Shown piece after piece: positions 4,911 through 45,583 of a stretch of 48,652 nt of DNA (the stretch's first letter is position 1; each line of letters begins with the position of its first letter). The notes below the pieces were generated by a model that was not told the DNA's origin, made no database searches, and saw only the letters and a list, made by a program, of their open reading frames with translations. The position numbers were made by a program, and so were the translations under genes. Source of the stretch: Fusobacterium sp. (lineage in GTDB: Bacteria; Fusobacteriota; Fusobacteriia; Fusobacteriales; Fusobacteriaceae). The stretch covers positions 1 through 48,652 of the forward strand of contig JAHHSZ010000001.1 in the NCBI GenBank assembly GCA_020024915.1, read 5' to 3'.

Positions 4911-4997
4911 GCATGGGTGGCGGAATGGTAGACGCGCAAGGTTGAGGTCCTTGTAGGTAGTTCTCCTGTGAGAGTTCAAATCTCTTCTCATGCACCA
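4911..4997 (+). tRNA. tRNA-Leu (anticodon GAG)
   Basis: Acceptor stem GCATGGG/CTCATGC plus ACCA; anticodon arm CAAGG-TTGAGGT-CCTTG; long variable arm; T-loop GTTCAAATC; encoded CCA. Confidence 0.96.
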
Positions 4998-41502: not shown

Positions 41503-42426
41503 CTAATCTTCTACAACTTTCTCAATTATCTTTATACTTTTATTTTCACTATCAACTTTGCAAAGAGCTCCCAATGGTAGTGTCAACATAGGTTCACTAT
41601 GTCCACTCTCTAAATTATATAATACTGGTTTTCCTAAATTTTTAAAATAATCTTCAAAAACCTTTATTAATGGCATATCCTTTTCAGAATTTGGTTCACA
41701 ATTTTTGAAATCTCCCAATACAATACCTTGAACCTTATCCAAAACTCCATGTTTTTTTAATTGATTTAAAAATCTATCAATTCTGTAAGTTTTCTCTCCT
41801 ATCTCCTCTAAAAACAGTATCTTATCTCTATAATCCAAGTCATACTCTGTTCCTAAAGTGGCTATAAGAGTTGTCAAATTTCCACCTACAAGTACACCTC
41901 TAGCTCTTCCATGAGATATCACTCCAATCTCTTTTGAAAAGTTTTTTATCTCCAACTCTTTTGAAGAATTTGAGACTACCTCTACAAAGTTTTTATAACT
42001 CTCTTCACTATAGTTGCCTAAAAAATTGCTCACAGCCATAGGACCATGAAATGTCACAAGCTGAACTCTCTCATTTAGAGCTATATGCAATGTAGTTATA
42101 TCACTGTATCCTATGAATATTTTAGGATTTTCTCTGATCATATCTAAATCTAGATACTCCACAATTCTGTTGCAACCATAACCACCACGCATACACATTA
42201 TTGCTGATATCTCTTTATTTGCAAAAAATTCATTTATCTCTTGAGCTCTCTCCATATCTGTTCCAGCATAAGAGTACCACTCTTTCTTAGTACACTCTCC
42301 TAAAATTACTTTATAACCCATAGCTTCTATATTTTTTTTAGCCTCCAAAACCCTCTCAAAAGAGGTATTACTTGCTGGTGCTACAATTCCAATAATATCA
42401 CCTTTTTTTAATTTCTTTCCTAACAT
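41503..42426 (-). CDS. ldcA: LD-carboxypeptidase (S66, LdcA/MccF family), no signal peptide
   Basis: GIVAPAS, RGGYG, GYSDIT (Ser), HGPM, GGNL, LEEIGE (Glu), SGH (His). Confidence 0.9.
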   Translation of the reverse strand: MLGKKLKKGDIIGIVAPASNTSFERVLEAKKNIEAMGYKVILGECTKKEWYSYAGTDMERAQEINEFFANKEISAIMCMRGGYGCNRIVEYLDLDMIRENPKIFIGYSDITTLHIALNERVQLVTFHGPMAVSNFLGNYSEESYKNFVEVVSNSSKELEIKNFSKEIGVISHGRARGVLVGGNLTTLIATLGTEYDLDYRDKILFLEEIGEKTYRIDRFLNQLKKHGVLDKVQGIVLGDFKNCEPNSEKDMPLIKVFEDYFKNLGKPVLYNLESGHSEPMLTLPLGALCKVDSENKSIKIIEKVVED

Positions 42427-42435
42427 ATATCACCT

Positions 42436-44088
42436 TTAAAATAGATCTATCAGTAATTTTTCCATCTCATTTTTTAACTTTCTTCTACTTCCATTCCAGT
42501 GGTTTACTATAACAGTAAAAGCATACTCTCTATCATCTTTTTTTATATATCCAGTATATGATTGTATTCCACTCATACTACCACTTTTTATTCTCACTTC
42601 TCCATCAAATTTTTTAGGATTTAAAAAATCGTAAACTGTACCTTCATAACCTCCTCTAGGAAGTAATTTAATGTAAGCAGGATAGTTTTGATACATATAT
42701 GCTACTATACTTGTTAATAACTCTGCTGATACATAATCTCCTCTTGATAATCCACTCCCATCGTCCATGTTCAGTACCTTTGTATCTATACCTTTCTCTT
42801 CCCAAAACTCCTCTATATTGACATCTTGAAGTTTTAACAATTGAAATAGATGTTCAGTATAGTGGTTGTCACTTCTTTTTAATAAAGTTCTTACCATCTC
42901 TTTTATTGGTGCAGATTTTGTCACTGCTAAAGTCTTAGGGTTTTTAGCTCTTTTAGAAGTTTCTCTAGCTGTTTTTACTTTTCCATTAACCTTTATATTT
43001 GCTGAATTTAAATTAATTTTTAAATACTCACCTAAAAATAATCCTGGATTAGGAATATCACTCTGTATTACTATCTTTGATTTTTTAGGTACTTCTCCAG
43101 TCAAAACTCTCTTGTTCTCAAGTGGTAACCCTCTAACAGAAAATTCTCTACGCCCTTTTGGTGATATTTTTAATCTATTCTCAATTTTCAATCCAGGAAT
43201 TTTAGGTTTTACATCTAAAATTTCAACATTCTTCTCTCCAGAGTTTAGAGTTAGGGTATACAAATTATCAAATACACTTATCCCGTAAACTCCTTGTCCA
43301 TAGTTAGTTCCAAAATCTTCTAACAGCCACTTTTCTTCAACTCCAACGTATCCAAAAAGATTATCTATTACAATTATATCCCCTTTTACTCCCTTTATTC
43401 CTGCTGATTTTATCTTGGCTATCCAATCATTTATAAAAGCCATTCTATCTATCTTCACACCGTCAGATCCAAGAGTTGGATCTCCGCCACCTATTATATA
43501 TATATCCCCTGTCAATATTCCTTTGGGGTCTATCTTTCCATCATATAATAGCTTCGTTTCTAGTTTTGTATCTGCTCCTAATTTCTGAATAGCTGTAGAT
43601 GATGTTATCACTTTCATTATTGAGGCTGGAGTTATAGCTCTCTTCTCATTATATGAAGCCACCTGTTTTCCCTTTTGTAAATCAACAATACTAATTCCTA
43701 TATTGCTATGTTGTAACATCTCTAAGTTAATAAATCTTTCTACTGCTCTTTGCTCCCTTGTTTGAGTGATTTTTTTCTCTTGAACCTCCTGTTTTTTCTC
43801 AGGCTTTATCTCTACTACTTCATTTTTTACCTCTTCAACAACTGTTTCCATTGGTTCAACTTTCTCTTGTTCAAGTAACTCACTCTTTATCTCTTCAGAA
43901 CTCTCATCCTCCTTATAAAACTCACTCTCTAATCCATTTAGTATCTGCCCTGGTGCTTTCACTTCATTTTTTGTTGAGACTTCCTCTACTGCTACATCTT
44001 CATTTTTTAGATTATCAACTGGTATGTGTGTATTACTACAACCTGTCAATAAAACTAAAGCTAGTACAAAACATTTTAATTTTACCAT
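42436..44088 (-). CDS. dacB: D-Ala-D-Ala carboxypeptidase/endopeptidase PBP4 (S13), lipoprotein with an acidic N-terminal linker
   Basis: Lipobox LTGC; PASIMK (SxxK), GGGDPTL, SDN, DGSGLSR, KSG; probable ATG 44088 after GGAG (track start TTG 44100). Confidence 0.9.
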   Translation of the reverse strand: MVKLKCFVLALVLLTGCSNTHIPVDNLKNEDVAVEEVSTKNEVKAPGQILNGLESEFYKEDESSEEIKSELLEQEKVEPMETVVEEVKNEVVEIKPEKKQEVQEKKITQTREQRAVERFINLEMLQHSNIGISIVDLQKGKQVASYNEKRAITPASIMKVITSSTAIQKLGADTKLETKLLYDGKIDPKGILTGDIYIIGGGDPTLGSDGVKIDRMAFINDWIAKIKSAGIKGVKGDIIVIDNLFGYVGVEEKWLLEDFGTNYGQGVYGISVFDNLYTLTLNSGEKNVEILDVKPKIPGLKIENRLKISPKGRREFSVRGLPLENKRVLTGEVPKKSKIVIQSDIPNPGLFLGEYLKINLNSANIKVNGKVKTARETSKRAKNPKTLAVTKSAPIKEMVRTLLKRSDNHYTEHLFQLLKLQDVNIEEFWEEKGIDTKVLNMDDGSGLSRGDYVSAELLTSIVAYMYQNYPAYIKLLPRGGYEGTVYDFLNPKKFDGEVRIKSGSMSGIQSYTGYIKKDDREYAFTVIVNHWNGSRRKLKNEMEKLLIDLF

Positions 44089-44109
44089 TTTCTTCTCCAA
44101 ATTATATTT

Positions 44110-44649
44110 TTATGCAAACACAATTCTACAAATCCATACTGCTGTTAATAATCCTGCTAAGTCTGCTAATAATCCTGCTAATACTGCATGTCTTGTTTTT
44201 CTTATGCTTACTGCTCCAAAATATACTGCAAGAACATAAAAAGTTGTTTCAGTTGACCCCATCATAGTTGAGGCTATTCTACCTATCAATGAATCTGGTC
44301 CATAAGTTATCATCAGATCATTCATAACTCCTGTAGCCCCTCCTCCAGATAGAGGTCTTAAAATTGCCATTGGTAATACCTCTCCAGGCATACCTATTAT
44401 TGAAAATACTGGATCTAGTACTTTCAACATTATATCTATACATCCAGAGGCTCTAAATATTCCTATGGCAACTAACATGGCAACTAAAAAAGGTATTATC
44501 CTAATAGCTGTATCAAAACCTTCCTTAGCTCCTTCACAAAATACTTCATATACCTTTACTTTTTTTACAAAGTAAGCATATCCCACTATTATTAATATAA
44601 TTAAAGGAATTGCATAAAGTGATATACCTTCCATTATTCTTACAAACAT
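44110..44649 (-). CDS. spmB: SpmB-like nucleoside-recognition (Gate) membrane protein
   Basis: VYEVFCEGAKEG, IGIFRASG, LRPLSGGG, GPDS, GSTETTFYVLAVYFG, TRHA. Confidence 0.92.
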   Translation of the reverse strand: MFVRIMEGISLYAIPLIILIIVGYAYFVKKVKVYEVFCEGAKEGFDTAIRIIPFLVAMLVAIGIFRASGCIDIMLKVLDPVFSIIGMPGEVLPMAILRPLSGGGATGVMNDLMITYGPDSLIGRIASTMMGSTETTFYVLAVYFGAVSIRKTRHAVLAGLLADLAGLLTAVWICRIVFA

Positions 44650-44698: not shown

Positions 44699-45295
44699 TT
44701 ATCTTTTTTCTCTTTTATATGCAGGTAATTTTTCTAAAAACTTACAAGACACTACTGCCACTACAGTTGAAACAATAGTCGCTATTATTGTTGGAGCTAT
44801 TATTTCAGTAGCATTTGTAGATCCGGCTGCCACTCTATAAGCTATAGTACTTGATGAGATCAGTGTCACTGAAGATGTATTTATTGCTAAAAACATAACC
44901 ATTGAGTTTGTTGCCTCATCCTTATTATCATTTAACAATTGTAACTCTTGCATTGCCTTTATTCCTAATGGAGTAGCAGCATTTCCTAATCCAAAAAAGT
45001 TTGCTGCCATATTTGCAACTATACTTCCCATTGCAGGATGATCTGCTGGTATTTCTGGAAATAATTTTACCATTAAAGGTTTCATTGCCTTCCCTAAAGC
45101 TTTTACCATTCCAGCTTCCTCTGCTACCTTCATAAGCCCTAACCATAGAGCCATAACTCCTATCATCTCTATAGATAGTGTCACTGCTGTACTAGCACTA
45201 GAGATGGCTGAATCTGTTATCACCTGTACATTCCCAGTAAATATACCAACTAAAATTCCAATCACTATCAAACCACACCAAATCGCATTAATCAT
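44699..45295 (-). CDS. spmA: SpmA-like nucleoside-recognition (Gate) membrane protein
   Basis: MINAIW, LWLGLMKVAE, LFPEIPADHPAMG, GLGNAATPLGIKAM, FLAINTSS. Confidence 0.92.
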   Translation of the reverse strand: MINAIWCGLIVIGILVGIFTGNVQVITDSAISSASTAVTLSIEMIGVMALWLGLMKVAEEAGMVKALGKAMKPLMVKLFPEIPADHPAMGSIVANMAANFFGLGNAATPLGIKAMQELQLLNDNKDEATNSMVMFLAINTSSVTLISSSTIAYRVAAGSTNATEIIAPTIIATIVSTVVAVVSCKFLEKLPAYKREKR

Positions 45296-45327
45296 AAAAA
45301 ACCTCCTCTAAAATTTAATTTAAAATT

Positions 45328-45352
45328 AAAAAAATCACAGCTGAACTGTGAT
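45328..45352 (-). terminator. Leader terminator (riboswitch expression platform) upstream of spmA
   Basis: Minus strand ATCACAG-TTCAG-CTGTGAT-TTTTTT, between the aptamer and the spmA RBS (AGGAGG). Confidence 0.85.
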
Positions 45353-45371
45353 AGTCTATTAAATATCTTTT

Positions 45372-45536
45372 CAGATAGTACTTCATTAAAAACTAATGAC
45401 AAACACTATAAATATTGTTTATAGTGCCAATAAAAAAGTTCAGCCCTCTTTTTTACTTCAGCAAATTCCCCTTTCAAAATATCATAACGCCTGCCAAGCT
45501 ATATAATCCTACTCTTGTCCTTTGCTCCCTACCTTT
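45372..45536 (-). promoter_or_regulatory. Lysine-riboswitch (L-box)-like aptamer with a variant ligand pocket
   Basis: P1 AGGTAG/CTATCT; P2 GCAAA/TTTGC; loop-E strands AAGAGTA and GAAAGG; P3 GTAAAAAAG/CTTTTTTAT; P4 CACTATAAA-CAATA-TTTATAGTG; TGTCA; P5 CATTA/TAATG; ~165 nt; followed by a terminator. Confidence 0.85.
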
Positions 45537-45553
45537 ATTCAATTTATATTGTA

Positions 45554-45583
45554 AGTATACTATAATTACTGTTTTTTGTACAA
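45554..45583 (-). promoter_or_regulatory. Promoter for the riboswitch-spmA operon
   Basis: Minus strand TTGTAC (45583-45578), 18 bp, TATACT (45559-45554); ~20 nt upstream of P1. Confidence 0.6.

Follow-up and report, generated by a model that had tools for sequence, protein, structure and literature searches.

A lysine-riboswitch homologue with a non-canonical ligand pocket upstream of spmA-spmB-carboxypeptidase operons in five species of one genus

The canonical lysine riboswitch or L box (RF00168), known from T. maritima asd and B. subtilis lysC, combines a five-way junction with loop E in P2, an L2-L3 pair, an AAUA-type loop in L4, the nucleotides G80-A81 and an intrinsic terminator, all in a leader position. 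In the legend to Figure 2 of PMC3384330 the pocket pair G12-C79 is called invariant among known L boxes, and the list of conserved T. maritima positions given in PMC3764141 agrees with the T. maritima numbering applied here. The consequences of replacing this pair were described by Wilson-Mitchell, Grundy and Henkin (2012; PMC3384330) for the G40A-C110U mutant of B. subtilis lysC. According to their report, which concerns an aptamer other than ours studied in vitro at 10 mM ligand, the mutant showed no lysine response (Trm1/2 above 13 mM), was unresponsive to D-Lys, cadaverine, AEC, hydroxylysine, ornithine, arginine, DAP and N-methyl-lysine, and increased its termination 4.4-fold when given lysine hydroxamate (Trm1/2 2.1 mM) and 2.9-fold when given lysinamide. 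Another mutant from the same work, G144A-U170 (G114A in T. maritima), likewise no longer responded to lysine; the compounds that did act on it were lysine ethyl ester, lysinamide and methyl-lysine.

Specificity variants are known from other riboswitch classes, including the guanine-derived 2'-dG, xanthine and 8-oxoG RNAs, the FMN variants and the SAM-derived spermidine RNA. In the accounts consulted, these keep the scaffold of the parent and, like the element described here, have changed ligand-contacting nucleotides and are rare and lineage-restricted. They differ in having their own gene association and biochemical proof, whereas our element has the same association as its parent in sibling species. 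Riboswitches for only three amino acids are known according to PMC9971707. No natural specificity or pocket variant of the lysine class was found in print by a search that left aside the 2017 variant survey, the crystal-structure papers and supplements.

The stretch of Fusobacterium sp. DNA analysed here, referred to as the window, comprises 48,652 nucleotides (contig JAHHSZ010000001.1). Rfam cmscan matched the Lysine model RF00168 to the minus strand at 45368-45539, over model positions 1-182, with 71.2 bits and an E-value of 1e-16, the gathering score being 30 bits. The loop-E strands AGAGUA and GAAAGG, L2, L3, the CAAUA loop of L4 and the helices P1-P5 all align to the model, in agreement with the original prediction, made from the letters of the sequence, of a complete L-box scaffold around an altered pocket. 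The three departures from the consensus on which that prediction was built can all be read directly in the sequence: a shortened J1/2, GCUGAA instead of GCCGAA in J2/3 with U at 45460, and a substituted J5/1 (Table 1). Additionally, a G-to-A change at 45383 converts the U.G pair closing P5 to U-A. Thus the pocket retains G11, G80, A81, G114.U140, G141, A162 and G163; compared with the canonical L box it has A-U for G12-C79, A for G165 and G for A10, nucleotide 13 is absent, and the CUGUGA antiterminator is missing. The element is certainly a lysine-riboswitch homologue, and its ligand pocket is certainly non-canonical.

Table 1. Positions in the window of the variant element, its expression platform and the operon behind it.
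Feature	Position	Strand	Evidence
Promoter-like site TGTACA, 17 nt, TATACT	45554..45582	-	consensus scan 9/12; 10-leader alignment
Lysine-riboswitch-type aptamer (P1-P5, loop E, L2, L3, L4)	45368..45539	-	RF00168 71.2 bits; 5-leader pairing
P1 5' strand AGGUAG	45534-45529	-	direct reading of sequence
J1/2 GGA, 3 nt, versus consensus AGGN	45526..45528	-	sequence, model, leader alignment
A45526, taken as position 12, pairing with U45460	45526, 45460	-	sequence and leader alignment
P2 start GC	45525-45524	-	direct reading of sequence
J2/3 U79-G80-A81; U (45460) in place of invariant C79, G80 and A81 retained	45458..45460	-	
L3 loop GGGCUGAAC, complementary to top of terminator (GUUCAGC)	45438..45446	-	duplex energy, loop shuffles
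J5/1 AGUA versus AGNG; A162 and G163 retained, G165 to A at 45379	45379..45382	-	
Small hairpin UAUCU-GAAA-AGAUA using P1 3' strand, possible anti-P1 element	45364..45377	-	minimum-free-energy folds
Second CUAUC copy, overlapping terminator base	45350-45354	-	
Intrinsic terminator, 8-bp stem AUCACAGU/GCUGUGAU, then U run	45327..45352	-	
RBS GAGGAGG of spmA-like gene	45302-45308	-	
spmA-like membrane protein, Pfam Gate	44699..45295	-	
spmB-like membrane protein, Pfam Gate	44110..44649	-	
S13 D-Ala-D-Ala carboxypeptidase, DacB/PBP4 type	42436..44100	-	
S66 LD-carboxypeptidase, LdcA type	41503..42426	-	

RF00168 matches were present in 129 of the 131 genomes of the family. From about 329 such matches 56 distinct L-box sequences were aligned, and all 51 non-variant sequences in this alignment are canonical at the positions changed here, having AGAGG-N(1-2)-GC, C79, G163 and G165; position 164 is free among them (A 13, C 4, G 2, U 32). 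The variant pocket state was found in 5 of the 131 genomes, all belonging to genus g1. Common to the five are a J1/2 of 3 nt ending in A, U79 within GCUGAA, and a changed position 165. Two types can be distinguished: type A, comprising the window's genome (G000) and a sister species (G056), has GGA or AGA in J1/2 and AGUA in J5/1, and type B (G055, G060 and G051) has GUA, GAA or AAA in J1/2 and AAAU or UAUU in J5/1. Of the altered positions, A12-U79 and the 3-nt J1/2 are present in all five species, which form two clades, and the other junction positions vary.

A covariance model built from the five variants (R1) scored them at 179-187 bits across the family, and its next matches were canonical spmA leaders at 135-149 bits. 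SpmA was encoded at 43 places in 36 of the 131 family genomes; the regions upstream, confirmed by covariance model, carry a canonical L-box in 11 cases, a variant in 5 and none in 27. Among 80 SpmA loci of other taxa an L-box was detected only at L034, where it is canonical and G064-like, and no variant occurred there outside the genus. Likewise, a metagenome scan with an invariant 18-mer (60 stretches) added no new diversity: the sole real L-box, at L224, is cut at the locus end and, as far as it is visible, is identical to the G051 type. Within the phylum 67 of 190 genomes contain the pattern GAARGG-N7-GCUGAA, at about 100 places altogether, and among the 46 places examined, which include recurrent ones of a second family, the only L-boxes were the four known variants; the AAAAGG of G060 does not fit the pattern. 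Contigs with a G056-type allele, recognised by minus-strand G-to-A changes at 45528 and 45532, were recovered from four DNA runs of four studies and carry no change at 45460, 45526 or 45379. Canonical orthologues had been named as a sign of strain-specific drift. Outside the sister species, the closest clade is in fact canonical, but the variant is not specific to a strain, and drift of this kind is not its explanation.

The original prediction comprised two paired swaps in the pocket, G12-C79 to A-U and A10.G165, which we take to be paired in the T. maritima aptamer, to G.A; the alternative was a deleted A10 with a G12.U79 wobble. In the five variants J1/2 reads GGA, AGA, GUA, GAA and AAA. 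The A adjoining P2 and U79 are invariant, and the other two J1/2 positions vary; G056, with A-G-A, retains both A10 and G11, and its final A lies directly against P2. Because these two nucleotides are invariant while the middle position varies (G, G, U, A, A), the alignment favours an A12-U79 pair in a continuous helix with no bulge over the wobble. The prediction is also supported by lysC G40A-C110U, a change of the same pair, in which the lysine response is lost and specificity is altered (PMC3384330). The second swap fared differently: G10.A165 is private to the window's genome, the sister species has A.A, and type B has G.U, G.U and A-U. Type B also has U-A, A-U and A-U at 11-164, and with these standard or wobble pairs P1 is thus two pairs longer and the G11.G163 floor is replaced. 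Type B is also changed at G163 and G165, two of its leaders have A114-U140, and one has no G141. Of the junction, only A12, U79, G80 and A81 are conserved in the five, J1/2 positions 10-11 and all of J5/1 being variable. By this comparison the picture is closer to a pocket that has relaxed or collapsed than to a new, sharply defined one.

Over 48 pairs of the fold in the five variants, 96.3% of pair cells hold standard pairs and 12 pairs are changed on both sides, five of these double changes lying within the three-species type B clade. This pairing score was reached by none of 500 shuffles, and slid controls were 41-50% paired. As sequence motifs, the loop E / P2 turn, the L2-L3 complementarity and the L4 pentaloop are present and invariant in all five. 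Within type B the identity at four-fold sites of spmA is 0.48-0.51 and that of the aptamer 0.77-0.83; for canonical pairs at similar divergence the corresponding values are 0.48-0.57 and 0.77-0.90. Since the aptamer is as conserved as its canonical counterparts near synonymous saturation and carries compensatory changes, the fold is still under selection. Judged by these comparisons, its maintenance is about as strong as that of functional L-boxes.

Synteny at the locus extends over type A, type B and canonical species, with spmA-spmB-S13-S66-ClC followed by MarR, MATE and M20 genes. In the window the spmA, spmB, S13 and S66 genes are all on the strand of the aptamer, followed by a gap and the ClC channel gene. 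Canonical L-boxes are located on the same spmAB-dacB-ldcA-ClC locus in G052, G053, G054, G062 and G064. Hence, the gene association of the variants at this sibling-species locus is not distinct from that of the parent class, and, the context being shared with canonical siblings, no new physiology is indicated. The downstream genes had been taken as a pointer to a new ligand, an argument that this shared context does not support. 

Canonical lysine riboswitches were seen to lead operons of spmA-spmB with DD- and/or LD-carboxypeptidase genes in at least 10 species of genus g1 (loci L116-L125, L148 and L149), and several large genomes of the genus have lysA 3-4 kb downstream of the L-box leader of spmAB-ldcA. 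Such loci suggest a role of SpmAB in lysine/DAP salvage. No account of spmAB-carboxypeptidase operons under an L-box was found in the literature, supplements excluded (PMC5584792, PMC10043782 and PMC9971707 among the papers covered), and this undescribed regulon link between lysine sensing, spmAB and peptidoglycan carboxypeptidases could help to assign the function of SpmA and SpmB.

In a tree of SpmA+SpmB, type A is sister to the canonical G064a inside a canonical clade (99/98), and type B forms a separate clade (100/100); canonical spmA-locus orthologues are closer to type A than type B is. The type A aptamer is also closest overall to that of G064a (0.83), versus 0.70-0.72 to type B, and the linker deletions differ between the two types. 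The separate clades and differing deletions thus indicate that the pair-preserving A-U change arose or was fixed in two lineages, and two origins of the variant pocket are the simpler reading of these sequences. Sliding-window similarity of the leaders is mosaic, which could also reflect a single origin combined with a leader swap by short-patch recombination.

The expression platform of the variants departs from that of their relatives. All of the 8 canonical spmA leaders analysed have a CUGUGA...UCACAG antiterminator enclosing an inner hairpin, in a linker of 35-65 nt, and a CUGUGA-type antiterminator is absent from 5 out of 5 variant leaders, the linker of which is 9-20 nt. With this classical antiterminator lost, a read-out would have to use another competitor. 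One candidate, in type A only, would be the second CUAUC copy at the terminator base acting as an alternative P1: in the folds the P1 5' strand can pair with it while the first copy forms the small hairpin. The predicted terminator probability of type A drops from 0.98-0.99 with P1 enforced to 0.12-0.18 with its 5' strand blocked, and that of type B is 0.96-0.99 in every P1 state, predictions that are noisy even in canonical leaders (0.03-0.95), so that thermodynamic coupling between P1 and terminator counts only as a hint. As the type B terminator would form whatever the state of P1, there is no evident way for ligand binding to act on it.

Another candidate competitor would be loop L3, pairing with the top of the terminator. 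The predicted duplexes have energies of -10.9 to -14.7 kcal/mol, equalled by a fraction of no more than 0.003 among 300 loop shuffles, and in 7 of 16 leaders at most 0.01 of the loop shuffles match as well as L3. The pairing strands are GCUGAAC/GUUCAGC in the window, GCCAAAC/GUUUGGC in G062 and GCUAAAC/GUUUAG in G054; these differences between species are compensatory at two adjacent pairs. Other L-box leaders examined from the family showed no such complementarity, and the pairing may be an antitermination contact. In spmA-associated L-boxes L3 was found to match both the 5' arm and the loop of the element's own terminator (45334-45352 in the window; also L116-L120 and L148), and the terminator loop mimics L2.

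A canonical lysine riboswitch leading the spmA-spmB-dacB-ldcA operon would be the ancestor of these RNAs, its scaffold (five helices, loop E, L2-L3 loops and L4) being kept by selection and the main-chain end of its ligand pocket rebuilt. Given the intrinsic terminator behind the aptamer, we propose that the element still works as a transcription-attenuating leader. The A12-U79 pocket would have no guanine amino group facing the carboxylate, and by analogy with the engineered lysC G40A-C110U, in which the pair at the carboxyl end of the pocket is replaced in the same way, the natural variants are probably lysine-blind, the response to free L-lysine being most likely lost. The mutant G144A-U170 provides a further parallel, its G114A change being common to two type B leaders. 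Both engineered RNAs are laboratory point mutants, whereas the natural variants carry further junction changes and an altered expression platform. Any ligand would be expected to bear a neutral or donor group at the carboxylate site, which disfavours DAP, D-Lys, ornithine and cadaverine. These were among the ligands originally suggested, and none elicited a response in the engineered A-U mutant as reported in PMC3384330. Our preferred reading is a lysine-like compound with an alpha-carboxyl that is neutral or a hydrogen-bond donor, for example a peptide with an N-terminal diamino acid, the carboxyl of which is amide-linked, or another carboxyl-modified derivative.

To a riboswitch descendant with a rebuilt pocket binding such a new lysine-like ligand we assign a chance slightly below even. 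A narrower version appears doubtful, namely that the variants represent the first natural class derived from the lysine riboswitch with a new ligand, a diamino acid with a neutral alpha-carboxyl such as a stem-peptide fragment ending in X-D-Ala, and that this class arose twice in one genus. This fragment would be on the substrate side of the operon's own LD- and DD-carboxypeptidases, and if the version is true, the operon is tied to peptidoglycan turnover and not to the lysine pool. In favour of the broader reading, a pair-preserving double change was fixed in two lineages, though one mutation would have sufficed for lysine binding to be lost. A sharply defined new class is opposed by the low number of sequences (five), by a junction that varies, by a gene context that has not changed and by the lack of the antiterminator. 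As a natural copy of the pair swap that reprogrammed B. subtilis lysC in vitro, the element offers a concrete RNA for testing natural retargeting, and the canonical leaders that sibling species carry at this locus are built-in controls.

Several other explanations have to be weighed. The leader could be a structured RNA with no ligand, its pocket having been inactivated to uncouple the operon from lysine, and serve as a constitutive partial attenuator or stabilising 5' structure, a role for which its helices would have been retained. The junction nucleotides that vary among the five, the two canonical pairs added to P1 in type B, the antiterminator lost from every variant, the type B terminator predicted in all states and an operon identical to that of canonical siblings are all in line with this explanation. 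However, a constitutive role needs no five-helix fold of 170 nt, and this fold shows compensatory changes and L-box-like conservation; one mutation would abolish binding, yet the double change preserved the pair in two clades; and a strong terminator without an antiterminator would shut off genes that have clearly stayed intact. We consider a leader of this kind unlikely, with a chance that is still substantial. Lower is our estimate for a sensor that still binds lysine with a shifted affinity or dynamic range and is thus retuned, not retargeted. It would fit the pocket nucleotides G80, A81, G114.U140, G141, A162 and G163 retained in the window's copy, the presumed lysine control of the orthologous loci through their canonical L-boxes, and the salvage logic suggested by the nearby lysA (3-4 kb) in several large genomes. 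It is rendered improbable by the engineered A-U pair, which abolished the lysine response up to 13 mM, by the invariance ascribed to the pocket pair among known L boxes (both PMC3384330), and by the further changes in type B at G163, G165 and, in two species, G114.

Two explanations have very little weight. Release of aptamer and terminator as a small RNA or a protein-binding platform acting in trans would account for a strong terminator close behind the aptamer with no antiterminator; it is very improbable, as there is no evidence of a target and the distance of about 30 nt from the terminator to the RBS leaves no room for an operon promoter downstream. A dying riboswitch, the changes of which look compensatory by chance, might be suspected from the shortened linker and from the Rfam score, the lowest of the three L-boxes in the genome. 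Recent decay is nevertheless hardly credible, given that the state is common to the sister species and four independent runs and that a similar state occurs in a second, three-species clade with saturated synonymous sites and a conserved, covarying aptamer.

The two other L-boxes of the window's genome, in L001 (1210-1384) and L002 (1501-1681), are both canonical (AGAGGNGC, GCCGAA, GGAGNGC), with 111.6 and 85.7 bits. One precedes an NhaC-type antiporter gene and the other genes for a thioesterase and a beta-keto-acid cleavage enzyme (lysine fermentation), so that this cell also has lysine sensing of the ordinary kind. For lysA (TIGR01048) the window's genome (G000; 88.6% complete) gave no match, and the gene was found in 20 of the 20 other genomes of the genus, appearing split by an internal TAA in G068. 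With this distribution, presence of lysA fails to discriminate variant from canonical leaders.

The promoter-like site upstream of the aptamer is conserved in canonical and variant leaders in an alignment of 10 leaders. Near it, AAAATATATTGTACAAAA forms a direct duplication in the window's genome (45578-45620), and 21 bases of this segment are missing from three of the four DNA runs holding the G056-type allele. A palindromic core, TTGTACAA, is conserved upstream of canonical and type A leaders, and type B has TTATACA instead. Elsewhere in the window, positions 4911-4994 hold an ordinary tRNA of 84 nt with a long variable arm (RF00005, 52 bits).
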